From Escherichia phage vB_EcoM-RPN242, in sequence record OL656110.1: a DNA stretch of 64,000 bases; one strand, given 5' to 3'. Both the position numbers and the translations under genes were made by a program. Below are positions 5,082-47,320 of this stretch, one piece after another (position 1 is the first letter of the stretch; every line of letters begins with the position of its first letter). The notes under the pieces were generated by a model that had not been told where the DNA came from, ran no database searches, and worked only from the letters and a program-made list of their open reading frames with translations.

Positions 5082-5151
5082 AATAAAAACCCTTTCGTTA
5101 TTAAGACCGTATCCGCGGCATATTGTTGTTCTGACTGTGTAGTGAGAACAT

Positions 5152-5179
5152 AATATACTGCATTTTCATAGATGTAAAC
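5152..5179 (-). promoter_or_regulatory. sigma70-like (T4 early-type) promoter candidate
   Basis: Minus strand reads GTTTAC - 16 nt - TATATT about 70 nt upstream of the ATG at 5081, inside a 176-bp AT-rich intergenic region. Confidence 0.4.
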
Positions 5180-7135: not shown

Positions 7136-8080
7136 GTGGAAGACTATCGCAATTTTATCACACAGATGTTACAGCGGGGCTTGTCGCGCAAGAACCGCTT
7201 CAGAGTGACCATCCCTCTACCACCAGGGATCTTTGACTCCAATGCCACTCTGGCTAATGACGGAAAGGCGTACAGAACCAATTCATCTTTTGGTGACTTG
7301 TTTAAGCAGTCAGCCCGTATTGTAAACGCTTTCTTTGGAGGGACAAACCAGACGTCCCGTTCCCTTCAGATGATGTGTATGGTTGCCTCATTGCCAGGGG
7401 TTGGTATCGACACCACTCCAATGACAAACAACGGTAATCACATCAAGATGCCGAACAACAAGTCCAACGTCGACCTCGACTTGTCATTCTTATTAGCCAA
7501 TGACTATTATGAGAAGTCTGTGATGGACAAGTGGAAGAGTCTGATCTTTGATCCACACACCACCAAAATGGGATATTACGAAGACTTCGTGACTGACATA
7601 TGCATTGAACAGCTTGACACCGAAGATCAAGTGGTCCACCGCGTCTACATCGTCGAGGCTCACCCAATAAATTTCAGTTCTATTGAGCTAGATAAAGGTG
7701 CCACAGACCAGTTCAACCAGTACAACATTTCTTTCTCTTACAACAAAGTGCTTTCGGAGACAGAATATGAAACACGCAGCCTTTCCAGCGATTTTCTTCC
7801 TCTCGGCATTGCTGACGCTCTTACCAGTGGTGACTGGGAAACTGCGGCCTCAAAAGCTGGACAGCTTTATCGCAAGGTGAAAGAAGGGAACTTCACAGGA
7901 GAGGCTCTCCTGGCTTACAAACAGCTTGACCAACTTGTAAACAACCTGGCTGGGATAAGCATACAGGACTTCGAGCGCATCTCGGTAGGTATCTCTCGTG
8001 ACATCATGGGTAACGATAACCTGACGGCGGCGGAGAAGACAAGCCTGTTGGGAATATTGCAAGACGTGATGGGGAAATAA
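7136..8080 (+). CDS. tail-tube-fold structural protein (T4 gp19/gp54 family-like)
   Basis: 314 aa; GTG start at 7136 preceded by GGAG; NRFRVTIPLPPGIF ... MMCMVASLPGVGIDTTP pattern resembles the gp19/gp54 family; late promoter upstream. Confidence 0.5.
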   Translation: MEDYRNFITQMLQRGLSRKNRFRVTIPLPPGIFDSNATLANDGKAYRTNSSFGDLFKQSARIVNAFFGGTNQTSRSLQMMCMVASLPGVGIDTTPMTNNGNHIKMPNNKSNVDLDLSFLLANDYYEKSVMDKWKSLIFDPHTTKMGYYEDFVTDICIEQLDTEDQVVHRVYIVEAHPINFSSIELDKGATDQFNQYNISFSYNKVLSETEYETRSLSSDFLPLGIADALTSGDWETAASKAGQLYRKVKEGNFTGEALLAYKQLDQLVNNLAGISIQDFERISVGISRDIMGNDNLTAAEKTSLLGILQDVMGK

Positions 8081-13260: not shown

Positions 13261-14871
13261 ATGTTAGACAATATGAGATGGTTTTACGGCACCGTTGAAG
13301 ATGTCAACGATCCAGACCAAAATGGGCGAGTTGCTGTTCGCATATATGGCGTACACACCGACGATCCCGTCCTCCTGCCTACGGACAAACTCCCATGGGC
13401 GAAGGTACTGATGCCTGCTTCAAATGCCTCCTCTGCTGGTTTAGGTTGGTCTCCAACGGGTATCATTCCTGGTACTGAGGTTATGGGGTTCGCCCTTGAC
13501 GAAGCATACCAGAATTTACGCATCACCTGGACTTGGACTGGTTCAAGCCCTACTGATGGTGCCGACACAAACCCACTGGCTCTCGGGCAGGTCGTTCAAT
13601 CTGTAGAACGTCAGGCGTACAACGCTGTCACTGACGTTCCTGTGAAACAAGAAGACGAACCACAACCAGATCCACAACCACCTGTTGGTGGGTATGATCC
13701 AGAGAAGTGGATGACAATCGCTCGTGGCGAATTGGGTATCAAGGAGTACGCCGGAAAGTTCAACAACAACCCGCGCATTATAGAATATCACAAGACAACC
13801 TCCCTTGGTGCTTCTGAAGATGAAGTGTCGTGGTGTGCGGCGTTCGTGGGTTGGGTTATGATACAGGCTGGATACACGTCTACACGCTCCGCTCTTGCCC
13901 GATCTTACCTTACATGGGGCACTCCACTGTCAGCACCACAATATGGCGCTATCGTAGTCTTCCGGCGTGGTAACAACCCTACATTTGGACACGTAGCGTT
14001 TGTGCAGAAGTTCGATGCAAACTATGTCTGGTGTATTGGTGGCAACCAATCCGATTCAGTGAAGGTCAGTCGTTTCAGACGTTCTTCGGTCTTGGGATAT
14101 CGTTGGCCTGGTCCTGCTAACACAGCCACAGCCGCGCCTGCGCAGCAGAATGGTAAATGGTCAGAACCTATCCCAGATCGTACTCCAAAGGAACAACCGA
14201 CTCCGGCTCCTACTGGGCGAGTACAGGATATTGACAACACTGGAGAGACCATGGTTCCGGCTGCGGGTGGCTCCAAATACCCGTACAATAACGTCATGGT
14301 GTCCCGAGCTGGGCATATTATGGAAGTGGATGACACCCCTGGTGGTGAACGTCTTCACTGGATGCATAAGTCTGGGTCTTACAAGCAAATGTTGCCGGAT
14401 GGTGATGTGGTCAACAAGTCCGTCAAAGACCACTATGACCTGACGATGTTCAACAAGCGTTATTATGTCGGCGGGGACCACAACCTGACGGTCAAAGGAA
14501 CTGAAGTTCAGCGCAAGACAGGTGAGGTCTATCATTTGCATTCCAACAACTACTCAAATGTGGTTGCGGGCACAGCGCTGATGAAATTCAGTGACCTAGC
14601 GGAAATGCAAGCGCAGAATATTCTGCGCATTATCTGCGAGACTCTGGAGGTCGGTGGGACATTGAAGGTTCCTAAGATTCTAACGACTGAGATAATCGCT
14701 GACAAACTGACTGTCGCTCAGACGATCAATGGTAACATCATATATGCCGAAGGTGCTGGTCGCGCTTCTTCTCTGTCAGGTGCAACCCCTGCATCCCCTA
14801 CGGGTCCGGGTGAGATTGACATCAAGGCAGAATTAAAAGACAATGGTGGTAATTTCGGCACCAAAGAGTAA
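13261..14871 (+). CDS. baseplate central spike protein (gp5/VgrG-like OB-fold N-terminus) with embedded CHAP-type cysteine peptidase domain
   Basis: 536 aa; N-terminal NGRVAVRIYGVHTDDPVLLPTDKLPWAKV; CHAP-like SWCAAFVGWVM ... GHVAFV; Gly/Val-rich C-terminal region. Confidence 0.7.
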   Translation: MLDNMRWFYGTVEDVNDPDQNGRVAVRIYGVHTDDPVLLPTDKLPWAKVLMPASNASSAGLGWSPTGIIPGTEVMGFALDEAYQNLRITWTWTGSSPTDGADTNPLALGQVVQSVERQAYNAVTDVPVKQEDEPQPDPQPPVGGYDPEKWMTIARGELGIKEYAGKFNNNPRIIEYHKTTSLGASEDEVSWCAAFVGWVMIQAGYTSTRSALARSYLTWGTPLSAPQYGAIVVFRRGNNPTFGHVAFVQKFDANYVWCIGGNQSDSVKVSRFRRSSVLGYRWPGPANTATAAPAQQNGKWSEPIPDRTPKEQPTPAPTGRVQDIDNTGETMVPAAGGSKYPYNNVMVSRAGHIMEVDDTPGGERLHWMHKSGSYKQMLPDGDVVNKSVKDHYDLTMFNKRYYVGGDHNLTVKGTEVQRKTGEVYHLHSNNYSNVVAGTALMKFSDLAEMQAQNILRIICETLEVGGTLKVPKILTTEIIADKLTVAQTINGNIIYAEGAGRASSLSGATPASPTGPGEIDIKAELKDNGGNFGTKE

Positions 14872-21257: not shown

Positions 21258-22052
21258 TTAACTGAAACTCTTGTATGCTGCTGCGAGCTTCGTGTCGTAC
21301 TGGTTCTTGGCATACGCCGGACCATTATAGCGCCGCGCAAACTCAGCCCAGTTCTTGTCCTTCAGAGCCTGCCAGAGCTTGGCGTCAGCCTTGATGAACT
21401 TCACGAATGCCATCAAATGAGCACGTTCTCCTGTCAGGAAGTCGTTGAACATCTCCTTGGCGTTGGCATATCCACAGACCTGGCAGTTGAATCCCATGAT
21501 CTGGAAGAGACCGTAAGAGGCGCTCTCGTACGCACAATCCTCATCAATGTTGATGGCCGCATGAAGTCGATCCAACTCCGCGTCGCCGCCCGTGTACCCG
21601 CCTGCAGAAGGGTTGACCAACGTCGGGTACATATGTCCCATGGCATTCGCCCGAGCCTGTCCGAACTTCGCCATCAGCTTTTTATACATGATGTGGCGCT
21701 CAAATAATGTCTTGATCTTACCTGACTTGGTGAAGCCCGTGCCGCGCGACTCAACCTGATTCACCGCCTTGACAGAGGCAAGGTCAACACCCAGATCGTT
21801 AGCAGCATCAATCAGGTCTGACTCAGTTAGATGATCCTGATGGGCGTCTCCGGCGTTGCGAATAGCATAGGAGGTCTTTGGACCCACGATACCATCAATG
21901 ACAAGCCCCGCACCCGCCTGAACAGTCTTGACGGCGTTCTCTGTTGCCTTGCCAAAGATACCATCAGCGACGAGGGTGAAGCCGATTTTGTTGAGGCTAT
22001 CCTGAAGTGCCTTCACTTCAGTACCACGGTTGCCAAATTTTAGAATGGCCAT
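21258..22052 (-). CDS. endolysin: N-terminal peptidoglycan-binding domain + C-terminal muramidase-like domain
   Basis: Start at ATG 22052 with GGAGG RBS; PG-binding-like LKFGNRGTEVKALQDSLNKIGF...DGIFGKATENAVK; C-terminal YGLFQIMGFN region resembling DUF3380-type N-acetylmuramidases. Confidence 0.7.
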   Translation of the reverse strand: MAILKFGNRGTEVKALQDSLNKIGFTLVADGIFGKATENAVKTVQAGAGLVIDGIVGPKTSYAIRNAGDAHQDHLTESDLIDAANDLGVDLASVKAVNQVESRGTGFTKSGKIKTLFERHIMYKKLMAKFGQARANAMGHMYPTLVNPSAGGYTGGDAELDRLHAAINIDEDCAYESASYGLFQIMGFNCQVCGYANAKEMFNDFLTGERAHLMAFVKFIKADAKLWQALKDKNWAEFARRYNGPAYAKNQYDTKLAAAYKSFS

Positions 22053-22121
22053 AAGAAAATACCTCCACAATGAATGCAGAGGTATTTAAAGTGAAAGTGA
22101 ACTACTTGAGGGAGTGGTGTA

Positions 22122-23194: not shown

Positions 23195-23340
23195 GATGTA
23201 ATTCCTCATAATGTAGTTGGTTCATTTCACTTTTCATTCGGCGGTGTGTTGCCGCCCTATGTGAACTATAATAGTGCATCATTATTGAAGAGTAAAGTCT
23301 TTTTCAATAATTTTTTAAAATATTTTTGAAGTATTTTAAA

Positions 23341-37049: not shown

Positions 37050-38764
37050 ACCTCAAACACGGCATCAGTGAACCAAGCGGGGAAGAACTCTGGGTTGCGC
37101 ATCATCAGTGATTCAAAAGAAGAATCAAGGATGTACGTCGCAGCCCAGTCATTCACACCCCTGACCGAACGCCCACACATCTGAACGATACGCAGTACCG
37201 CCATCCTGAAGTACGCCGATGGGTCCACGCTGTTGACGTGGGCCACCAGAGGATCACCAAGGTAATCATATGGCACCTTGATCAAGATCTGAAATCGACT
37301 ATAATCGCCTTTGAAGTCATACCCCTCTTCCATGGCCGGACTGGCGATGACACAAGGCGTCTTCGTCCTGAACGCGTGTTCCATGATGTCCATCAGAGCC
37401 TTACGAGTACGAGGAACGTGAATCATATTCCGGTACTTACTGAACTTTTGTAGAGCCAGGGCGCGGTCATAACTGACTGTGTGAATGATGCCAGACTGCC
37501 CAGGGTGGAACGCGATAATTTCATCCACGTATTCAGCCAGCTTCTTCATCTCGTAGTCGCCCATGTTCGCTGTCATCTTCATGATGGGCATGTAGTTGAC
37601 TTTCCGGTTCTCAATCGGGATAGGGTTGCCGATCTGTATCTTGTGGTACTCACCCTCGCGGATACCCAGTGACCGGGCGTACGAGTCAATCCCACAAATG
37701 GTAGCCGACATGTGGACGTGGTAGTCACCCTTGCGGAACAGACCGAACTGGGATACATCAGAGGCGATGACAGGCTTGAACTGAATCATACCCTTGTCCT
37801 TCTCCTGTACGATGAAAGTGCTGGCGTTGGTCTGCCCCATGATACCACAGTAGTCGCTGAGGTTGTGAAGATTATCAATAATATCAGACAGCTTCATCAC
37901 CTGGGCTTCAGTCAGGCGCTCGTCCTCTACCAGTTCCTCAAGAGTTTCCAATAGGGCTTCAACCTTGCCATACAGTTCATCAAATATCGCATGCATCTCA
38001 CCAGACAGGGAATACAGCTTGCCCAATTCGTAGTTCTCTGTGCGGATGATGATATCCTTGATGGTCTCCACGATAGGCACTCCCTCGGGGATCGTAAGCA
38101 ACCCTTCCACAGCCTTTATGTTGTATTCCATGATAGTATGCTCTAGGAGCGTAGAGGGCATCTTATGACACTCGTCAAGGATCAGCATATCGGCACGGTT
38201 TTCCGGCTTCATACAAATCGTCGTACACATCTCCACCATCATGGCGGCGTTGGTGCAGCGCAGGGAGGAGACGTCGGTCCACTGTCTACGCGCCTGAACA
38301 TATGGGCAACGATTCTTACTACAGTGGCCATCACGGCATGCCATACGGCACTGAATGGCGTTGTAGTATAGGTCGGGACTGATGTGGCAACGATAGTTCT
38401 TCTTGCCCTTCAGGATGTCTATCGCCACGGCTTTCTCTGCTGCATACTGATCCTGTAAACCTTTGGTCGGCGTCGTGATAGACGTGCGGAACTGACCATA
38501 CGGGTTGTGCTCAAGAACCAAATGGCGAAGCACGTTATGGATGGTAGTGCCGATGAGGGATTTACCTACACCAGTCGGAGCCTCGATGATCACGTGTTTG
38601 AATTTCTTATTCACAAGGGCATCGATGGCTTCAACGATGCATTCCATCTGGCCGGGGTTGGCGGTGTCATACGGGAAGAACTCAGTGGCAAGAGACTTGA
38701 TGCGGTCTATGCTGACTGGTCCGACGCCGTTAAGCGCCTTGGTATATTGGTTGAATGCTGTCAC
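37046..38764 (-). CDS. DinG/XPD-like superfamily-2 DNA helicase with Fe-S cluster cysteines
   Basis: 572 aa; GTG start preceded by AGGAGGA; Walker A APTGVGKS, DECH box LILDECH, four-Cys cluster YRCH...CRMACRDGHCSKNRC. Confidence 0.7.
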   Translation of the reverse strand: MTAFNQYTKALNGVGPVSIDRIKSLATEFFPYDTANPGQMECIVEAIDALVNKKFKHVIIEAPTGVGKSLIGTTIHNVLRHLVLEHNPYGQFRTSITTPTKGLQDQYAAEKAVAIDILKGKKNYRCHISPDLYYNAIQCRMACRDGHCSKNRCPYVQARRQWTDVSSLRCTNAAMMVEMCTTICMKPENRADMLILDECHKMPSTLLEHTIMEYNIKAVEGLLTIPEGVPIVETIKDIIIRTENYELGKLYSLSGEMHAIFDELYGKVEALLETLEELVEDERLTEAQVMKLSDIIDNLHNLSDYCGIMGQTNASTFIVQEKDKGMIQFKPVIASDVSQFGLFRKGDYHVHMSATICGIDSYARSLGIREGEYHKIQIGNPIPIENRKVNYMPIMKMTANMGDYEMKKLAEYVDEIIAFHPGQSGIIHTVSYDRALALQKFSKYRNMIHVPRTRKALMDIMEHAFRTKTPCVIASPAMEEGYDFKGDYSRFQILIKVPYDYLGDPLVAHVNSVDPSAYFRMAVLRIVQMCGRSVRGVNDWAATYILDSSFESLMMRNPEFFPAWFTDAVFEV

Positions 38765-38811
38765 TTTCTTCCTCCTATGGGATTCGCCTTTAGTTTAACC
38801 GATTCCCAGGA

Positions 38812-38850
38812 ACGAAAAAGCCGGAGCATTGTACTCCGGCTTTCTCTTTT
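38812..38850. terminator. bidirectional rho-independent terminator
   Basis: agccggag-cattgta-ctccggct hairpin (38819..38841) with T-run on plus strand and A-run on the other side. Confidence 0.65.
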
Positions 38851-38892
38851 GCCATACCCTGATTGCAGAGCCTGGCCGCGCGTCAGATAGAA

Positions 38893-39171
38893 TTACTTGC
38901 CGTTGGCAGCGTTCTTCAGACCTTCGCCCACTTTGAATTTCACAACGTTTTTCGCCGCGATCTGAATGGTCTGGCCGTTCAGAGGGTTGCGACCTTCACG
39001 CGCTTCTTGGTGTTTCACTTCGAACGCACCGAAGCCAACCAGCTGTACAGATGCGCCTGCAGCAACTGCAGTTTTAACACCGTCGATAAAGGATGCCACT
39101 ACTTTCTCCGCTTCGCCTTTGGTGATATTCTGGGTCGAAGCAATGTGGGCAACAAATTCAGTACGATTCAT
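38893..39171 (-). CDS. HU/IHF-family DNA-binding protein
   Basis: 92 aa; MNRTEFV ... FGAFEVKHQEAREGRNPLNGQTIQIAAKNVVKFKVGEGLKNA, the HU beta-arm signature. Confidence 0.8.
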   Translation of the reverse strand: MNRTEFVAHIASTQNITKGEAEKVVASFIDGVKTAVAAGASVQLVGFGAFEVKHQEAREGRNPLNGQTIQIAAKNVVKFKVGEGLKNAANGK

Positions 39172-39264
39172 CTGGATTTCTCCGTTGGGTTAATGTTTAC
39201 TTTCATGTTCACTACAAGAGGACTACATCTTACCTAACAAAACATATTGAATAAAGCGAAATTA

Positions 39265-39513
39265 TTAGCCTTTCGCCACGTCTTCAGTCGTCATCGTGCC
39301 ATAACATCCACAGCGTTCACAAATCACTCTGACGCAAGGCTTAAAAGTCTGAATATTAGTCACAGGAACGTTCACCGCCTTTGAAGAAACTTGCATTTCG
39401 CGGACTTCAACCCGTTGTTCGGCCAGGCGCTCATCGTCCAAGAAGGTGATCGTCTTGTGAGAACAACGCATTGACGATTCACCAACCCAGATTATTGCCA
39501 TGTTGGGACTCAT
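39265..39513 (-). CDS. hypothetical protein (82 aa) with CxxC pair
   Basis: Complete ORF with ATG start; ICERCGCYG. Confidence 0.45.
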   Translation of the reverse strand: MSPNMAIIWVGESSMRCSHKTITFLDDERLAEQRVEVREMQVSSKAVNVPVTNIQTFKPCVRVICERCGCYGTMTTEDVAKG

Positions 39514-39788
39514 GATTTGACCTCCGATTTGGAGATTAACGATTCCATCTCCTGACGACCAATGACAGTCTCAACTTTGTCTTCTTCAACCATCATTTCA
39601 TTCAGAAGATCGTACCCCAGGACTTGTACACCAAAAGACTTTTTGTTCAGTTCTGCCTCAATATTGAGAACTCGCTGAACCGTCAGGCCACCGGAAGAGA
39701 ACGGTACTGGATAGAAGGCGGAACGCACTTGGACACACCCATTTACGCTGTAACGAACCAGCAAGACATCACACCATACGCCAGCCAT
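39510..39788 (-). CDS. hypothetical protein (92 aa)
   Basis: Complete ORF with ATG start. Confidence 0.45.
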   Translation of the reverse strand: MAGVWCDVLLVRYSVNGCVQVRSAFYPVPFSSGGLTVQRVLNIEAELNKKSFGVQVLGYDLLNEMMVEEDKVETVIGRQEMESLISKSEVKS

Positions 39789-39789
39789 G

Positions 39790-40452
39790 TCACACCTCCA
39801 CCGCGTGAGACTTCAGGAGTTCATCAATCTCTTTCTGCCCCATGTATGAGAACGGGGTGCGCTGGTAGAACGCCCAGAGTACTAACTGGACAACAGCACG
39901 GGAACGGGTTTCGGCCGTCATCACCAGGCCACTGAAATGAGGAGACTCAGCTGTCCATTGTATCTCTTCGCCCAGGTCTTGATTACAGGTCACCGAGATG
40001 CGGAACTTGTTGCACAGATTGTCGACTTCTTTGTACGCATCGGTAGACACACGAAGTTGTTCCGAATGTGCCCACGGAGTTGTGACGATTCTTTCACCCA
40101 TCACTTTATCAGAGATAAACCAATCAATACATTCGGTAAACTCACTAAAATGGTCTATACGATAAATGCAGTCTCCCCCTTCCATAGAACGCATGGCATG
40201 ATAGCGAGAGTCGATTTCGTTGTTGTGCATCGCGTTGAAGTCGATGAACACGCGACGCGCCAGCACAACGTCTTCTGGTTGAAGTGCCAGGAAATCGTTC
40301 AGGCGGCTATAATGGAGGATATTGGAACCGTCGTGGCCACGTGTGCAATATGCGTAATAGCTACCGATACGGGCGTGGGCAATATAAGACAACGGGGCGA
40401 AGAATAATCCGTCAGGATCAGGACCGACGATAATAGAATAAAGTTTTTCCAT
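39790..40452 (-). CDS. hypothetical protein (220 aa)
   Basis: First ATG at 40452 (MEKLYSI...) with ...ACTATATC leader; track start is TTG. Confidence 0.5.
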   Translation of the reverse strand: MEKLYSIIVGPDPDGLFFAPLSYIAHARIGSYYAYCTRGHDGSNILHYSRLNDFLALQPEDVVLARRVFIDFNAMHNNEIDSRYHAMRSMEGGDCIYRIDHFSEFTECIDWFISDKVMGERIVTTPWAHSEQLRVSTDAYKEVDNLCNKFRISVTCNQDLGEEIQWTAESPHFSGLVMTAETRSRAVVQLVLWAFYQRTPFSYMGQKEIDELLKSHAVEV

Positions 40453-40508
40453 GATATAGTCACTCAAATGAAAGGGCAGCTTTATGATAAGCCGCCCGAG
40501 GTTATTGA

Positions 40509-41375
40509 TTATTGGAAATCGCCAACATACATATTCAGCTTGTCGTCCCAGTTCAGAACGACACGGATCGTTCCAGTATCTTCTGGGAAGGTCAGTTTGT
40601 CACACATGGCGCGATTAACATAAGTCCCGCTCTGGTTGACGTTGTAGTCCTTGCCTTGCATGATACCAAAACGCTTGAAGTCGCGAGTGACCATCATGTT
40701 CAGAGTTGTCCAAGGGATTGCATCGCGCAGGGCTTTGCACAGGACGATCTTGCCATCCGACCTGAACGACACAAACAGCTCGTTGGCGACACGACGGCGA
40801 GTAGGCGGTTCAAGTTCACGCAGGGAAATGAATTGTGAATTCTTTACCTTTTCTGCCAGCGCCTGTACTTCTGCTGGATCCGGCTTGAACGGCTCCACTG
40901 AAGAGTCAGACTTCATCACAACGTCACCCTTGCGCTTCTCGACCAATTGCTCCACAGCCTTTTGACTCACGGGCGGGAGGTATTTGGACTTAGGAACAAC
41001 CGCTGGCTTGATGACAGGGCTTGCATCTGGTTTCGCCTTTGGGGTACTCCGAGCCGCACGCAGCTTTTCCTGGGCTTCCAGAATGCGCTCTTGACGAGAA
41101 AGCGGAGCCTTTGGGGTGATCTTCGTACTGAAGTCAGAAACGCCGACCCAGTCACCCTGGTCATTACGCTTGGCCACCAGAGTCAGTTTGTGGATGATAC
41201 CCTGAAGTTTGCTCTCACGTAAGTTGTCGGCATACCAGAACTTCGCGCCCATCTCGAACTTCTCGGCGAAGATCACGCGAGCGTCTTCGTGTACCAACAT
41301 AACTTTGGCTGCGTTGGGGGCAAAAGCCTTATTCTTTTCGATAATCGCCGCAGCGATTGTTTTGGTCAGGAGCAT
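40509..41375 (-). CDS. hypothetical protein with Lys/Pro-rich linker
   Basis: 288 aa from ATG 41375 (track start GTG at 41378); central KAKPDASPVIKPAVVPKSKYLPP. Confidence 0.55.
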   Translation of the reverse strand: MLLTKTIAAAIIEKNKAFAPNAAKVMLVHEDARVIFAEKFEMGAKFWYADNLRESKLQGIIHKLTLVAKRNDQGDWVGVSDFSTKITPKAPLSRQERILEAQEKLRAARSTPKAKPDASPVIKPAVVPKSKYLPPVSQKAVEQLVEKRKGDVVMKSDSSVEPFKPDPAEVQALAEKVKNSQFISLRELEPPTRRRVANELFVSFRSDGKIVLCKALRDAIPWTTLNMMVTRDFKRFGIMQGKDYNVNQSGTYVNRAMCDKLTFPEDTGTIRVVLNWDDKLNMYVGDFQ

Positions 41376-41414
41376 CACAGTGTATTCCTTCAGTTCACAA
41401 TGTAGGGCTAAATT

Positions 41415-41741
41415 TTAACCCGAAACTTTATTTTGAAATCCGACAAAGTCCTGGGCAATCCCCCGGCAATACATCAGGTCTTTCTTCGTTTGTGGACTGT
41501 TGTCAGCCGCAGTCAGCATCATGGGAAGGTCCAGCGCATTCTCTATCTGATCAACACTGAACAGATCAAGGCGCTTCAGCTCTCCCTCGAAGTCAGACAG
41601 TAGGATAGATGTGTCTTTGTCATCTGGGTGGAACTGCTGATACGTCTCCATCCATGCCACACATGTGTTCAGTTTGGACGGCGGCGCAGCGTTTACACAC
41701 CCGGCTATCAGTACCATCAAGAGCAGGATTTTACATTTCAT
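41415..41741 (-). CDS. putative lipoprotein
   Basis: N-terminal MKCKILLLMVLIAGC with lipobox L-I-A-G-C. Confidence 0.55.
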   Translation of the reverse strand: MKCKILLLMVLIAGCVNAAPPSKLNTCVAWMETYQQFHPDDKDTSILLSDFEGELKRLDLFSVDQIENALDLPMMLTAADNSPQTKKDLMYCRGIAQDFVGFQNKVSG

Positions 41742-42427
41742 CACTCGTTCTCCTTCATCATATTGTCGCAGTCAACACGAGTCTGCTGAAGTTCGCGCGA
41801 CATGCGAGGATCATCAAGGTTCACGCTCAGATTCGTGGCCAGGTCTTTCAGACCGTTCTGAACCCTGTCTTCAAAGTAATAATCGTTCTCAACCAGCCAG
41901 GCTCTGAGACCAAGAGCGCGGGTGCGCCATTCCTTCTTCAGGACGCGATCAGAGGTCTGCGTAGCGCTGTATTCGAATACTTTGATGCACTGGTTGCCAT
42001 CGTTGATAAGGTTCAGGTGGCGGCGACCAACCTGCACACCCTTCTGTAATGCCGGAGAAGGGAGCGAACGGCACTGTCTTACGGTCATTCGGCCTTGGGT
42101 GCCCATTCGGCCAGTCATGATCAAATCGCCAGCCTCCATGCCTCCACGGTTAAATTCGTCGTCATTGAGGTAGCCTTTGAGGTTATAGGCTCCCTGTTTG
42201 TAACGGTTGAACTCAATTCCGGCATTGACGACAGCAGTGGAGACGTTGCCTGTGTTCCAGAGTTCAGCGAAGTTCTCTATGGAACCAGACTTGTCGATGG
42301 CAACCGCCTGGGAGAACCCAGCACAATAGGAAAGGTCGGACCACAGTTTATCACCTGTGGAGTTCAGCTTGGCAGCGGCGGGTAATGCCAGACCAGCCAG
42401 CACAACCCCGAGGATTAAACGTTTCAT
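41741..42427 (-). CDS. secreted/periplasmic hypothetical protein
   Basis: Start at ATG 42427 (MKRLILGVVLAGLALPAAA...), a signal-peptide-like N-terminus. Confidence 0.5.
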   Translation of the reverse strand: MKRLILGVVLAGLALPAAAKLNSTGDKLWSDLSYCAGFSQAVAIDKSGSIENFAELWNTGNVSTAVVNAGIEFNRYKQGAYNLKGYLNDDEFNRGGMEAGDLIMTGRMGTQGRMTVRQCRSLPSPALQKGVQVGRRHLNLINDGNQCIKVFEYSATQTSDRVLKKEWRTRALGLRAWLVENDYYFEDRVQNGLKDLATNLSVNLDDPRMSRELQQTRVDCDNMMKENE

Positions 42428-42506
42428 GGCGATTCTCCTTATTTCATTGGATGAAATGATAGGCGGCTCACCATGATGAGTAAAGGGTTTCAATAAACTA
42501 TCGTAT

Positions 42507-42956
42507 TCAGAAACGGGTATCGCTGACCGTTCTGTATCGCACACCCTGAAACTGTTTAGCGAGTTTAACAAATTCCATCGCTGGCAAATCAACTTTGTAG
42601 ACCTTCATGCGCTGTTTGCCATCCATGTTCAACGCAGCGACAAATCGGTGAGAACCGTCAATAACGTAATTGTCAGAAGACACCCAAACTCGACCCATAG
42701 GTTTCTTATTTCTGATCTGCTTCATAATCTTCCAGACCTTCATTTTATTGATTTCGTTCTGGGTGAGACGAAGCATTTTGATGGGCACTTGCACAGCATC
42801 TATGGACACGCCGTTGTCTTCAAGATATTTGTGAAAATCTTCTTGTTTGTCGGCATCGATTTGTGGCATAGAAGAACGAGAAAGCCCGAGGTTCCCAACA
42901 GGAATCCTCAGGCCGTTAATGATGTTCAACCAGTCAATAAAGGATGTAAGGAACAT
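42507..42956 (-). CDS. ParB/sulfiredoxin-fold nuclease-like domain protein
   Basis: 149 aa; LRLTQNE ... YVIDGSHRFVAA resembles the ParB N-terminal domain signature. Tentative. Confidence 0.4.
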   Translation of the reverse strand: MFLTSFIDWLNIINGLRIPVGNLGLSRSSMPQIDADKQEDFHKYLEDNGVSIDAVQVPIKMLRLTQNEINKMKVWKIMKQIRNKKPMGRVWVSSDNYVIDGSHRFVAALNMDGKQRMKVYKVDLPAMEFVKLAKQFQGVRYRTVSDTRF

Positions 42957-42988
42957 GACACACCTCGGGATATAGGGTTATCCCTTAG

Positions 42989-43180
42989 TTAGCGCATCCA
43001 TCGATCCTTTCTCTCTTTCTCCTTGCGTTCGCGACGTTTCTGGTCGGATCGTAATAACCAATAGAAGAAGTTCCCACCCAAGATGAAAACCACCGCGATT
43101 ATTACTAGGACACCCTTCACAATTTCCCAAACCAATTCTTTATCCAAATTACACCTCGTCTTCTTCAGGTCCACCGTCAA
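42989..43180 (-). CDS. possible small membrane protein (63 aa)
   Basis: Single TM-like segment plus basic C-terminus; track start is TTG and no upstream ATG exists. Confidence 0.25.
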   Translation of the reverse strand: MTVDLKKTRCNLDKELVWEIVKGVLVIIAVVFILGGNFFYWLLRSDQKRRERKEKERKDRWMR

Positions 43181-43436
43181 TCAGGATACGAGCGGTGTCG
43201 AAAGTTTCCCCGCCCGTGTTCAGCAGCTTGGTCAGATCGTCAAGATATCGGACCGTACCAAGATCAGATGACCGCGATATAAACTCCAGCATGCCATACA
43301 ACGCTGTTTGGAATCGGCTGTTATCGATATCGTTCTTTATTACCATCAGGCGCAAGATGTTCTCTGACTGAGTATGGTCAACACACGCCTTGTCTCTGAT
43401 CATCTCCTTGATAGAACTTCTCTCTGATGGTGTCAT
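43149..43436 (-). CDS. hypothetical protein (95 aa)
   Basis: Complete ORF with ATG start. Confidence 0.45.
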   Translation of the reverse strand: MTPSERSSIKEMIRDKACVDHTQSENILRLMVIKNDIDNSRFQTALYGMLEFISRSSDLGTVRYLDDLTKLLNTGGETFDTARILIDGGPEEDEV

Positions 43437-43807
43437 AACGTACCCCCGACAGAGATCAAGAACTCTTCTTGCATGGTCTTGACCGGGTGGTGGTTGCGGG
43501 TTTCGAACATGAAGCCCCAGCCACCGTCGGCGACGTTGCCAAAGGTCTTGACGCCAAAGGACTTCGTCCCGTTAGAGCAGGAATAGATGTCCAGGACGTA
43601 TGGGCTACCCTGATTGTCGATCCCACGATTCACGTCGTCTGATACGCAGCGCTCAATCATCTTCCCGTTCTTATACAGAACGAGGTCTTGGCCATACGCC
43701 TTGAAAGCATAAACACCGTTGGTAGACACTCCGGTGATGACAGGAGGGGCGGAAACAGCAGCAAAGGAAGCGCCCAGCAGAGCAACAGCGAGGATTAACT
43801 TTTTCAT
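43433..43807 (-). CDS. secreted hypothetical protein
   Basis: Start at ATG 43807 (MKKLILAVALLGASFAAVSA...) with AGAGACTATATC leader. Confidence 0.55.
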   Translation of the reverse strand: MKKLILAVALLGASFAAVSAPPVITGVSTNGVYAFKAYGQDLVLYKNGKMIERCVSDDVNRGIDNQGSPYVLDIYSCSNGTKSFGVKTFGNVADGGWGFMFETRNHHPVKTMQEEFLISVGGTL

Positions 43808-43866
43808 GATATAGTCTCTTGGTTTCAAATGGGCGGGGTAATCATACCCCGCCCAAAGTTATAGAA

Positions 43867-44106
43867 TTAACTGATGTGCTTCAGAAGAGCGAAGAGGATC
43901 GCGGCCTTGGCCTTTACCTTTCCCACGATGCCTGTCTCGACATCAACTTCTTCAGCAACCCACTCTTTGCCTTTCTTGCTGATGATCACGTCACGGCGCT
44001 GTGCGTAGACTTCTTTGGTCGCATACACACGACGGAACCCTTTAGCGCGGAGCAATCCCCAATTACGATCAATTTCTACTGAGGTTTCTACCATTTTGTT
44101 CTTCAT
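43867..44106 (-). CDS. hypothetical protein (79 aa)
   Basis: Complete ORF with ATG start. Confidence 0.45.
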   Translation of the reverse strand: MKNKMVETSVEIDRNWGLLRAKGFRRVYATKEVYAQRRDVIISKKGKEWVAEEVDVETGIVGKVKAKAAILFALLKHIS

Positions 44107-44189
44107 GATATAATCTTACCTTTCAACCCGGTGAACCCATCGTTCGCCAGTTATTGAATAATAGGACATTCCTTAGAGGAAGTAAACCC

Positions 44190-44223
44190 CTAAAAGTAAA
44201 AATCCCCAACGTTTGTTGGGGAC
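44190..44223 (-). terminator. rho-independent terminator
   Basis: tccccaac-gttt-gttgggga hairpin (44203..44222) followed on minus strand by TTTTTACTTTTA. Confidence 0.7.
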
Positions 44224-44228
44224 TTCTG

Positions 44229-44552
44229 TTATTTGCGCAGGGCAACCACGAGTTCAGCGAGTTCACCAATGGTCGGGTCATCACCTTTACTACCCAGCCA
44301 ACCGTCGTCGATTTCGACCTGAAACTCTTCTTCTAGTTCCATTACGATTTCGATGGCATCCAGTTCGTCACCGCCGAGGTCTTTCTTGGTACGGAGACCA
44401 GCCAGCTTGTCCAGGGCGTCCTCGTTCTGAGATGCCACGTCGTCCAGCAATTTGCGCTTGTCATCGTCACGCCACAGATCCATATTCAGATTGTCAGTGG
44501 CGTACTGAGCCAGATGACGCATGACTTCAACATATGTTGGTTTACTGCTCAT
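44229..44552 (-). CDS. acyl-carrier-protein-fold protein lacking the phosphopantetheine serine (DSL -> DEL)
   Basis: 107 aa; KKDLGGDELDAIEIVMELEEEFQVEIDD parallels E. coli ACP [27 protein letters not shown]; DNA reads gac-gaa-ctg-gat, so Glu replaces the carrier Ser. Confidence 0.55.
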   Translation of the reverse strand: MSSKPTYVEVMRHLAQYATDNLNMDLWRDDDKRKLLDDVASQNEDALDKLAGLRTKKDLGGDELDAIEIVMELEEEFQVEIDDGWLGSKGDDPTIGELAELVVALRK

Positions 44553-44555
44553 GCT

Positions 44556-44590
44556 ACTTCTCCCAAAGAAAGGCGGGTTGCCCCGCCCGT
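44556..44590 (-). terminator. hairpin terminator/attenuator in leader of ACP-like gene
   Basis: ggcggg-ttgcc-cccgcc hairpin (44572..44588) followed on minus strand by CTTTCTTTGGG, about 20 nt upstream of the ATG at 44552. Confidence 0.5.
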
Positions 44591-44594
44591 TGGA

Positions 44595-46796
44595 TTAGAT
44601 TTTGATTTCTTTCTCTGTCAGTTCGGCAGTGACCTTGTACTTCACGCCATCCACTTCAACTTCCATGGTGGACTCTTCCAGGTCGAGGTCGGTGAACCAG
44701 CCGTGGCCAGCAACGATACCATACACCACTTTAGACAGTGTCTTGTTCAGGGCACGGACTTCGGTGATGGCCGCCTTGGCAGCAGCGTCGATCCAGTTTT
44801 CGATCAGCTGTTTCTGTAAGGCTTCAGGCACGGCAGTGATCATAGGAGACTTCACGAATGCTTCGTACTCTTTCAGAGCATTGGCGATGAACAAGTCACC
44901 AGCATTGAGTTTCTTGTTCTCTGCGATCTTCTTCTGTACTGCCGCGATGCTCGGTAGTGAAGACGCCCCGGCGATCTTCACGTTCAGCTCACGGCTCATG
45001 TAGAAGTCGGTAGACTCTTTGGTCTCAGTCTTCGGTGAGAAGCCGTAATCGCGGATGCCGTAGGAGGACAGGAACTCGGCCGCCTCAGCGCCGTACTGTA
45101 CTGCCAGGCCTTTGGCGTTACCCTTACCAACCAGGGCGTCTCGATAGAACTTCAGCACCTTCTGCTTGCCTTTCAGGGCTTCCAGACGGACATTATCCGC
45201 AAAGAACTGAGCAGCACTGATGTTCTTGACCATGGCGCGGTTGACCAGCGGTACGCTTTCCAGGTTCAGGACAAACACTTCCGGACCACCAAACACGTGG
45301 ACGCCCATTTCGATCAGCTTCTGTACAACTTCGATATCAGCCTTGAACGGCAGAGTCTTCACGTTAATGATACCGTCTTTGACGATGGTGTAGTTGCGCC
45401 ACTGGAAAGTATCCAGTTCTTCAGGCAGGCCAAACTTCTTCTGTGCGAATTCAGGCACAGCCACAGTACCGTGTTGAATTGTACGCACACTGATGTTCGG
45501 GCGCTCGGAGTTATAGACCAAATCACTGATTGGCACAACACCCAGATCGTTGGTAGGTTCGAACGTCGGGTTCCACTCTTCGTGCTCTGCCAGCTTGAGA
45601 GCCAGGGCTTTACGCTCTTCTTTGGACTGAGCATTCGCGATCTGTTCTGCCAGCTTGTCTTCGGTGTCGTCGGTTTTCTGCACAGTACCGCGCCCGATGC
45701 TCTTGTAGGAGAACATCGGATGCTTGGTAGCAACAGGCACACCAGCTTCAGCCAGGTACGTCAGAACATCAACGACGGTCGTCGCATCTTCGGCCGGAAC
45801 CAGGTCATAGTCAATACCGTCAACGCCGCGCAGCTGGTCATCAACGATGGCCTGGGTCAGATCGTTCTTGATGTTGGAGTAGTCCTGCTTGGTGAAGCAG
45901 TTGCTGTACTGTTTGATGAAGCGAACGTCGCCCGTCTTCTTCAGCGCAGCCCAAACCAGATCTGCGTCCATAGTGTGTACGCCGTAGAACGCCAGCACGT
46001 ATGCCGCCTGGATGTCCGCCAGGCTATCCATCTGGTCGATCATGTTAGGGTTTACAACCCACAGCTTGGTGACGCTCTCAGGGATGCTCACGTGGCCGAT
46101 AGGATGGTCTTCATCCGGCTGTACCGCCAGAACAGTTGCTACGCCGTTTTCAACATAGATAGCGTGGGTGTATAGCAGAGGCACATCAACAACCACCTTC
46201 GGTACTGATGACTTCAGCACGTTTTCCAGTTCGGTCTGGTATTCGGTCTGACCTTCGGCAAACACGTGAGTAGCACCAGAGCGTTCGGCCATCTGCGTCA
46301 GCAGTTCACGGTTACAGTGCCAGCCGTATTCGATAAATGTAATGTTATCGAAAGCAAATGGCAGGGTCTCAGCAACCAGTAGAATTTCGTTGGTACGCCA
46401 GCAGTTGTCATACCCGTCAGTCATGAACGCCAGGTTGTTGACGTAGCCAGGTTTCTTCAGGTCACGCGCAGTATCCATCGCCAGTTTCAATGGCTCAACG
46501 AATCCAGTACATCCGGACGGTTGCAGGAAGCGATCGATCAGTTTGTTCAGCTCGCTCAGGTCAGACGCAGCACCAACCTGGCGGCCAGCGAACACAGTGC
46601 CAAAGTCGCCTTTGGATGAGAAGTATAGAACACTTACAGTGTCTTCCGGTTTCACCAGGGAAGGCAGGTTCTCCTTCAGGTGCTTGCGGACTTCAGGAAG
46701 CGCACGGTACATAGAGCCGGAAATGTCTACAACGATTACATGGTTGGACGGAGCAGCAGTCGCAACCGCATTCTTAAATTCTAATGATTCAATCAT
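44595..46796 (-). CDS. large von Willebrand factor A (MIDAS) domain protein
   Basis: 733 aa from ATG 46796 (MIESLEFKN...); N-terminal vWA motifs HVIVVDISGSM (DxSxS) and FMTDGYDN; about 550 aa of unassigned C-terminal sequence. Confidence 0.65.
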   Translation of the reverse strand: MIESLEFKNAVATAAPSNHVIVVDISGSMYRALPEVRKHLKENLPSLVKPEDTVSVLYFSSKGDFGTVFAGRQVGAASDLSELNKLIDRFLQPSGCTGFVEPLKLAMDTARDLKKPGYVNNLAFMTDGYDNCWRTNEILLVAETLPFAFDNITFIEYGWHCNRELLTQMAERSGATHVFAEGQTEYQTELENVLKSSVPKVVVDVPLLYTHAIYVENGVATVLAVQPDEDHPIGHVSIPESVTKLWVVNPNMIDQMDSLADIQAAYVLAFYGVHTMDADLVWAALKKTGDVRFIKQYSNCFTKQDYSNIKNDLTQAIVDDQLRGVDGIDYDLVPAEDATTVVDVLTYLAEAGVPVATKHPMFSYKSIGRGTVQKTDDTEDKLAEQIANAQSKEERKALALKLAEHEEWNPTFEPTNDLGVVPISDLVYNSERPNISVRTIQHGTVAVPEFAQKKFGLPEELDTFQWRNYTIVKDGIINVKTLPFKADIEVVQKLIEMGVHVFGGPEVFVLNLESVPLVNRAMVKNISAAQFFADNVRLEALKGKQKVLKFYRDALVGKGNAKGLAVQYGAEAAEFLSSYGIRDYGFSPKTETKESTDFYMSRELNVKIAGASSLPSIAAVQKKIAENKKLNAGDLFIANALKEYEAFVKSPMITAVPEALQKQLIENWIDAAAKAAITEVRALNKTLSKVVYGIVAGHGWFTDLDLEESTMEVEVDGVKYKVTAELTEKEIKI

Positions 46797-47004
46797 TGTT
46801 CTCTTCGCCTTGTGCGTAAGGGTTAAGTTCAGACTCATCAGCGGCTTCGATGCGCGTCTTTACAGAGTCCAGCATATTGTTGATAAACTCACGAGACTGC
46901 TCCAGCTGAGCCAAGAGCACATCCTTTGGAGCATAGTTCTGAATGCAAGCCGGAATACTTTCAGACGTCGCCTTCAGGTCGGTAAAACATTCTTTCAGTA
47001 TCAT
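46789..47004 (-). CDS. hypothetical protein (71 aa)
   Basis: Complete ORF with ATG start; overlaps vWA gene start by 8 nt. Confidence 0.45.
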   Translation of the reverse strand: MILKECFTDLKATSESIPACIQNYAPKDVLLAQLEQSREFINNMLDSVKTRIEAADESELNPYAQGEENND

Positions 47005-47086
47005 TTGATCTCACTTAACAGAGACGACACCCTGTTGGGATTTAATAGCGGTCTTCACGCGCCAGGGGTGATAGAATCACCGTAGA

Positions 47087-47320
47087 TCAGGCCGATGTGC
47101 TCATCCAACAGGAAGTGCCCAGTTTCAAAGATCTCCCACAGGCGCTGGATAGAGCCAACCGCTTCTGAACGTCTGATGATTTGATGTGAGCATCAATCAC
47201 CACGTTCTGAACATGGCCGATAGGGATACCAGATTTTTGAATCTTGATATGTTCCTCACCACCTGGGAAGGTGAAGTGTTTGTAGAACACATCTTGGTCG
47301 TTCAATTTCAAACGAAACAT
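47087..47320 (-). CDS. hypothetical protein; reading frame appears to continue in another frame
   Basis: 77-aa ORF with ATG start; after about residue 47 a protein-like continuation (RSEAVGSIQRLWEIFETGHFLLDEHIGLIYGDSITPGA) exists in a different frame ending near 47055. Confidence 0.4.
   Translation of the reverse strand: MFRLKLNDQDVFYKHFTFPGGEEHIKIQKSGIPIGHVQNVVIDAHIKSSDVQKRLALSSACGRSLKLGTSCWMSTSA

Follow-up and report, generated by a model that had tools for sequence, protein, structure and literature searches.

This report concerns a cluster of six open reading frames (ORFs) between positions 41415 and 43807 of a 64,000-nucleotide stretch (the window) of Escherichia phage vB_EcoM-RPN242, sequence record OL656110.1. 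We letter the ORFs A to F by rising coordinate. Our results favor, tentatively and at a little under an even chance, the explanation that the cluster is an exported periplasmic module whose B and A products would be made early and would serve exclusion or protection in the manner of Spackle of phage T4, and that B and A are not the spanin for which they have been taken in related genomes.

By its sequence, the source genome is an Agtrevirus-like member of the Ackermannviridae. Megablast with the segment 41000-44200 matched 278 phage records, nearly all of them Ackermannviridae (Vi01-like), and the closest matches were Escherichia phages PC3, PH4, ZQ1 and AV101 at ~98% identity. The gene order of the window is common to Ackermannviridae phages. 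The original prediction had read the cluster as lipoprotein and signal-peptide proteins with possible exclusion functions, and the ORFs it named are present, all on the minus strand. Ribosome binding sites (RBSs) and the overlap between the stop of B and the start of A were read straight from the sequence. The six ORFs are as follows.

41415..41741, minus strand: A, 108-aa precursor with an RBS; PHROG 3843; labelled ‘o-spanin’ or ‘Rz-like spanin’ in relatives
41741..42427, minus strand: B, 228-aa precursor with a strong RBS, AAGGAG; labelled ‘i-spanin’ in relatives
42507..42956, minus strand: C, 149 aa, cytoplasmic, pI 9.9, no Cys, with a VIDGSHR motif
42989..43147, minus strand: D, 52 aa, single-pass membrane protein with a strongly basic, K/R-rich C-terminal tail; TTG start after the RBS GAGGTG
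43149..43436, minus strand: E, 95 aa, acidic, cytoplasmic; PHROG 4458
43433..43807, minus strand: F, 124-aa precursor; PHROG 5474; mature part ~104 aa with 2 invariant Cys

Export signals in A, B and F

Classical Sec-type N-termini were found by a heuristic rule scan only in A, B and F among the ~90 ORF-level genes of the window. The result was the same when the rule-based scan was extended to a whole genome, represented by the window plus the remainder of the near-identical phage PC3 (~208 ORFs, ~156 kb). A LipoSearch-like scan of this ~156-kb genome, in any frame and from any start codon, returned A as the only credible lipobox ORF. The chance that three such genes fall within six consecutive genes of 90 is ~0.01 by a back-of-envelope calculation. 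Since the scans find Sec N-termini only in A, B and F, the clustering of export signals that had been predicted is real and goes beyond chance.

The -3 and -1 positions of the signal peptidase I (SPase-I) sites are conserved in all three proteins, with position -2 and the h-region variable, and this pattern holds in remote homologs at 33% identity. Cysteine counts in the mature parts are even and invariant: 2 in A, 4 in B and 2 in F. From these sequence features it is well supported that A, B and F are exported through Sec, processed by SPase-I and periplasmic, and the signal-peptide-like N-termini proposed for B and F are thereby upheld.

The N-terminus of B is a cleavable-type Sec signal, MKRLILGVVLAGLALPAAA↓K (the arrow marks the cleavage site). 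Its hydrophobic core of 13-16 residues includes a Pro and is followed in every ortholog by P-A-x-A↓, the residue at -2 being A, T, S or H. Equivalent sites, ASA↓A, ANA↓G or of the SAWS type, are present in remote B homologs that are 33% identical (P0068, P0069, P0075). Mature B has ~209 aa, ~23.6 kDa and a pI of 6.8; its four Cys are invariant in close orthologs, and three of them are kept at ≥90% once a truncated remote homolog is counted. In the AF2 model (pLDDT 81.6, pTM 0.70) B is globular and all-alpha, with nine helices of no more than 25 residues. Foldseek with B gave a best E=1.9 against the PDB, and only uncharacterised family members against BFVD.

The N-terminus of A reads MKCKILLLMVLIAGC followed by VNA↓APPS. 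It contains a canonical lipobox, IAGC, with Val at +2, and three residues after the lipobox Cys stands an SPase-I site, VNA↓A. The lipobox noted in the original prediction is therefore present in the window, but it is not a feature of the family. Among the 36 full-length A clusters at 90% identity only six have a canonical lipobox, all six at least 95% identical to the window protein, and in a relative at 92% identity MAGS replaces IAGC, with Ser for the lipobox Cys. The Ala at -1, by contrast, is kept in 35 of the 36 clusters, and -2 is nearly free. At the loci examined, SPase-I signals without a lipobox are found in Limestonevirus (AYA↓AP), Det7-type Kuttervirus (VLA↓AP, VVA↓TP) and Taipeivirus (ALA↓VP), and the A orthologs of divergent lineages (AQA↓AG, VLA↓T, ARA↓D) have no lipobox either. 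This distribution strongly supports the lipobox of A as a recent feature, restricted to a shallow clade that comprises PC3/AV101, Marshall and Maynard. Since the lipobox Cys appears to have been gained in the clade to which the window belongs, A may here instead be tethered to the outer membrane.

Mature A is a protein of ~90 aa and ~10 kDa with a pI of 4.4, 5.6% Pro and two invariant Cys, at precursor positions 27 and 92, the second lying 16 residues from the C-terminus. Its AF2 model is a five-helix bundle with a pLDDT of 77 overall, 81-92 over most of residues 21-100 and 52 at the C-terminal end. A had no PDB sequence match, and its best Foldseek hit against the PDB was at E=4.6. For A against B, hhalign gave a probability of 17% over 11 columns; the two are not homologous, and a duplicated fragment of B as the source of A was rejected.

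Scans of all cluster proteins with Pfam, PHROG and NCBIfam returned only self-families and weak noise, and PDB sequence-profile searches with A, B, C and F gave nothing below E=0.6. B and A are predicted to be compact, all-helical and disulfide-stabilised proteins without a known fold match.

The spanin annotation

The original prediction missed that B and A already carry a two-component spanin annotation in relatives, in GenBank, RefSeq and PHROG alike. In Salmonella phage Marshall (CPT, 2013) B is labelled ‘i-spanin’ and A ‘o-spanin’. RefSeq and PHROG 3843 name A ‘Rz-like spanin’, and the label has been copied in PP35, moki, dinky and others and repeated in papers. The name reaches orthologs without a lipobox, such as orf145 of 0507-KN2-1. 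In Kongari 2018, Marshall is a two-component-spanin singleton whose periplasmic length, 300 residues, exceeds that of every other system among 528, and Maynard, Vi01, SFP10, SJ2, SJ3, CBA120, PhaxI, ECML-4, AG3 and RC-2014 stand in a ‘spanin-less’ table (PMC6139136). The A and B proteins of Maynard are, respectively, 100% and 98% identical to those of the window, and those of Marshall likewise. The survey is internally inconsistent in this respect (PMC6139136 Tables 3, 4 and 10), with Marshall scored as having a spanin and its close relatives as having none. The laboratory behind the survey later left the orthologs in Klebsiella phage Menlow ‘hypothetical’.

The annotation has some grounds. 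B and A form an adjacent and overlapping pair in i-then-o order and both products have N-terminal export signals, as in two-component spanins (lambda Rz/Rz1; the ‘separated/overlapped’ class, PMC6139136). The N-terminus of B is hydrophobic, the Val at +2 of the lipobox of A is the residue expected for outer-membrane sorting, and no other spanin is known in the Ackermannviridae.

However, neither of the membrane anchors by which a spanin is defined holds for the family. An i-spanin has an uncleaved N-terminal transmembrane domain (TMD; type II, N-in/C-out), whereas the signal of B is cleavable as judged by rules and by the sites of its orthologs, with a short, Pro-containing core and an AxA site conserved even at 33% identity. 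The lipobox (no Asp at +2) should be a family-wide property of an o-spanin, whereas in A its Cys is missing from 30 of the 36 clusters and from all divergent lineages. Because neither anchor is kept family-wide, the conclusion that B-A is not a canonical spanin is strongly supported. The predicted folds argue in the same direction. Where an i-spanin has an extended coiled-coil periplasmic domain, B is modelled as a globule without any helix above 25 residues, although more than 120 accepted i-spanins also lack a coiled-coil prediction (PMC6139136), which makes the coiled coil less than a strict criterion, and A is a folded helical bundle rather than the short, Pro-rich, unstructured peptide of an o-spanin. 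Moreover, ten close relatives with the same genes were scored as ‘spanin-less’ while Marshall is an extreme outlier in length, the local promoter (below) is of the sigma-70 type and not late, and there is no linkage to the endolysin, which lies ~20 kb from the cluster.

21258-22070, minus strand: endolysin with PG_binding_1 and Muramidase PF11860

By eye, this endolysin has no obvious N-terminal signal or signal-anchor-release (SAR) segment. No holin has been identified in the Ackermannviridae (PMC6486244).

The only ‘spanin’ label in the family consequently rests on a lipobox that most members lack, and it has spread to RefSeq, PHROGs and papers on lysis arsenals. Dropping it restores the ‘spanin-less’ status of the Ackermannviridae.

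The C-B-A module and its expression

B is 82-100% identical in 270 records, which include phages of Salmonella, Klebsiella, Escherichia, Dickeya, Shigella, Serratia and Enterobacter. An exhaustive HMM search of 1.8e9 representative proteins with the B profile gave 11 matches, the informative ones in Ackermannviridae-type contigs; the weakest (P0076, E=7.8e-4) resembles an unrelated repeat protein. B and A strictly co-occur. The stop of B overlaps the start of A (TGATG), and the two genes overlap by 1 or 4 nt in every lineage examined, which suggests translational coupling; on this sequence evidence the two genes are probably coupled. C adjoins B on its upstream side in every lineage and is 68-98% identical across loci.

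Each of 27 loci has A, B and C (B is shorter, ~126 aa, at L027 and L028), and the presence of D, E and F varies. Two full-length remote B homologs lie in divergent Ackermannviridae-like contigs in the order vWA gene … C-B-A … HU-helicase, and there, too, A overlaps the stop of B. By synteny, C-B-A is strongly supported as a core module of the Ackermannviridae. Two phages (L016 and L022) have a ~1-kb ORF between C and the promoter region of B, which looks like a homing endonuclease and leaves the promoter and B-A intact. An insertion at this position in two phages points to B-A as a separable unit.

The spacer between C and B contains a promoter-like site, and the same motif recurs in the window. 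The signals considered are these.

42456..42484, minus strand: sigma-70-type promoter-like site TTTACT-N17-TATCAT in the C-B spacer, 29 nt upstream of the B start
42456-42484, 44158-44186, 23268-23296 and 5150-5178, all minus strand: copies of the motif, intergenic, 29-69 nt upstream of gene starts
7094 (plus), 36239 (plus) and 26095 (minus): T4-type late-promoter boxes TATAAATA, each 23-35 nt upstream of a gene start
40509..41378, minus strand: 289-aa gene, PHROG 3828 (unknown function), no export signal; starts 36 nt after A with no hairpin between
40474..40497, minus strand: terminator-like hairpin downstream of the 289-aa gene, closing the unit B-A-289aa

The window has four copies of the motif TTTAC[AT]-N16-17-TA[TC][ACT]AT, where shuffles give an expectation of 0.08. 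In Taipeivirus the -35 element at the B promoter is exact, the -10 element is the related TACTAT, and the 17-nt spacing is kept while most spacer bases differ. A generic scan for sigma-70 promoters and terminators was overall no better than shuffles, and only the specific recurring motif was used. Early promoters of T4 have GTTTAC at -35, and the motif described here resembles them.

Since late-promoter boxes stand upstream of three genes, one of them the gp19-like tail-tube gene at 7136, the phage appears to use T4-like late promoters. None of these boxes is near the cluster; all three are elsewhere in the window. From the sigma-70-type motif, the lack of a nearby late promoter and the terminator we infer a pre-late unit, B-A-289aa, that host RNA polymerase would transcribe. 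The 289-aa gene is, from its position, probably co-transcribed with B-A.

A proposed Spackle-like role for B and A

T4 Spackle (Sp, gp61.3) is an early periplasmic inhibitor of the gp5 tail lysozyme (PMC7677548). Its 97-aa precursor, MKKFIFATIFALASCAAQPAMA↓GYDKDLCEW…, yields a mature protein of 75 aa, an acidic helical bundle with one disulfide, C29-C81. A shares this layout: a precursor of ~100 aa with a cleaved periplasmic signal, a mature part that, like Sp, is an acidic helical bundle of 75-90 aa, one Cys close to the start of the mature protein and another that in both cases precedes the C-terminus by 16 residues (the disulfide of A would be formed by its two invariant Cys), and a gene that lies among replication genes with an early-type promoter.

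The two signal peptides also resemble each other in an unexpected detail. In T4 sp (L034:2759-3052) a lipobox-like LASC stands seven residues before the AMA↓G site, as IAGC stands before VNA↓A in A. Because LASC is part of the Sp signal peptide, the presence of such a string in the signal peptide of a phage protein does not by itself identify a lipoprotein. The clade-limited gain of the lipobox in A and this cryptic lipobox of Spackle together warn that ‘phage lipobox’ and ‘o-spanin’ should not be treated as synonyms.

Homology of A to T4 Sp was considered and rejected (hhalign probability 2%); the PDB sequence search and Foldseek against the PDB return no Spackle entry. A further difference is that A is always accompanied by a larger partner, B.

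The explanation we favor can be put as follows. Host RNA polymerase would transcribe B-A from the sigma-70-type promoter before the late genes. Once exported via Sec, released by signal peptidase I and folded in the periplasm with disulfides, B and A would accumulate there. In this compartment they would act as a stoichiometric pair on a conserved target at the envelope stage, preferably the cell-wall-penetration or DNA-entry step of an incoming virion, for example its CHAP-domain tail hub. The outcome would be exclusion of superinfecting phages or protection against lysis from without, a function analogous to that of T4 Spackle. The secreted F and the small membrane protein D are accessory additions to C-B-A. 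The candidate hub is the following gene.

13261-14871, plus strand: gp5-like baseplate/tail hub with Gp5_OB and a CHAP amidase/peptidase domain, no T4-type lysozyme domain

Superinfection exclusion by B-A is a plausible guess by analogy, for which the circumstantial support consists of the sigma-70-type promoter, the lack of a late promoter, the Spackle-like layout and a neighborhood of accessory genes.

These interpretations should be read with some caution, since several points weigh against them. The signal-peptide calls come from our own rules and from conservation of the -3/-1 positions, with cleavage judged by rules. The AF2 models were built from shallow alignments of 20 sequences, mostly >80% identical. 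Early or pre-late expression of B-A is deduced from the promoter motif, and no transcriptome, Rz/Rz1 complementation or other experiment on these genes was found in the literature searched; a 2024 review of the Ackermannviridae does not mention lysis, the periplasm or superinfection. Spackle inhibits a lysozyme, whereas the tail hub here bears a CHAP domain instead, so that the analogy with Spackle is functional only. Finally, neither A nor B resembles Spackle, Imm, Llp, Cor or any other solved or annotated protein in sequence or fold.

The outer-membrane lipoproteins of superinfection exclusion, Llp of T5 and Cor of lambdoid and T1-like phages, are, like A in the window, small exported phage proteins with a lipobox. 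However, most A orthologs lack the lipobox, no homology was found (Pfam, PHROG and NCBIfam returned only A's own PHROG), and the receptors of Ackermannviridae are surface polysaccharides bound via tailspikes, not FhuA-type porins.

Alternative functions

A less specific statement is that B-A, with C, constitute an unrecognised, Ackermannviridae-specific pair of periplasmic effectors with new folds and an envelope function yet to be located, Spackle-like exclusion at the CHAP hub being one option. We consider this possible, if doubtful.

It could also be hypothesized that the pair serves periplasmic takeover of the host and not exclusion, by inhibiting an envelope enzyme or defence, or by disturbing the assembly of O-antigen or capsule, so that progeny escape debris. 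The strong conservation of B across phages of Salmonella, Escherichia, Klebsiella, Dickeya, Serratia and Enterobacter implies a target that is conserved in Enterobacterales or within the phage itself, and this, together with the early expression that the promoter suggests and the reliance of the family on polysaccharide receptors via multiple tailspikes, would suit such a role. On the other hand, the searches returned no homologous enzyme, inhibitor or binding domain, the proposal is purely inferential, and sequence data do not distinguish it from the Spackle-like role. We regard it as unlikely.

Soluble periplasmic B and A might otherwise take part in a non-canonical form of lysis, either setting its timing, as an antiholin or a sensor for lysis inhibition in the manner of T4 RI, or disrupting the outer membrane. 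Such a role would fill a gap, as neither holin nor spanin has been identified in the Ackermannviridae and no core exported proteins other than B and A were found. Ackermannviridae have rIIA/rIIB and a gene organisation like that of T4, and T4 RI is likewise a small, helical, periplasmic protein. However, neither B nor A has a fold or sequence match to RI or to any PDB entry, RI uses a signal-anchor-release domain, and no T-type holin is known in Ackermannviridae. The sigma-70-type promoter, with no late promoter nearby, argues for synthesis before the late genes, and a soluble protein cannot couple both membranes. Mature A is acidic and B neutral, and neither has the cationic or amphipathic character of the phiKT disruptin or of membrane-active endolysin tails (PMC6139136). 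A role in lysis of this kind appears decidedly improbable. The reading annotated in Marshall, PP35, moki, RefSeq and PHROG, a canonical two-component spanin in which B-A would span the periplasm and bring about membrane fusion during lysis, is on the evidence given above very hard to sustain.

Use in therapy and biocontrol is widely proposed for the Ackermannviridae (Vi01, CBA120, Det7, LIMEstone, AV101 and relatives). B-A, a tightly conserved, early-looking and exported pair without a known fold, are first candidates for exclusion or lysis roles in this family.

Neighboring genes

C was suggested to be a ParB-fold, nuclease-like protein. A weak match to PHROG 1033, ‘ParB-like partition protein’ (E=1.3e-3, residues 66-132), and the VIDGSHR motif agree with a ParB/Srx-like assignment; against it, Pfam ParBc was not found in 8 orthologs even at E up to 10, and NCBIfam and the PDB sequence search gave nothing. 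Its strongest match is to PHROG 2859, of unknown function (E=1.6e-44), where it covers part of a 740-position profile. C matches internal segments of this profile and of that of PHROG 11358 (3431 positions), which suggests that its domain also occurs within giant polyvalent phage proteins. Within the first 34 residues of C, 29 do not vary among eight aligned orthologs, one of which is only 68% identical overall.

D, with its one TMD and K/R-rich tail, corresponds to the small membrane protein that had been proposed. It matches PHROG 14464, ‘membrane protein’, and is accessory, missing in many relatives. E diverges fast except for a conserved C-terminal motif, DDLTKLLNT. The N-terminus of F is MKKLILAVALLGASFAAVSA↓PP (…SFAAVSA↓PP); no PDB, Pfam or NCBIfam match was found for it. 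F is accessory as well, being absent from many Kuttervirus genomes and truncated in Marshall.

The region around the cluster is plastic, and relatives have there a P22-type Sie gene, a LysM protein, DenV or an RNAP ADP-ribosylase. Rfam identified no RNA family over 38500-47200. In a divergent Ackermannviridae-like contig (L032:9028-10028) the gene that resembles A is directly followed by genes for a 69-aa protein with two TMDs and a Band_7/SPFH protein. The latter carries a genuine lipobox, LLTGC; a lipoprotein of this kind was not detected in the PC3-type genome. Between F and a 79-aa gene, at 43831-43854 on the minus strand, lies a perfect G+C-rich hairpin, GGGCGGGG-TATGATTA-CCCCGCCC, which is without a clear T-run and, judged from its sequence, may be a partial terminator separating two units.

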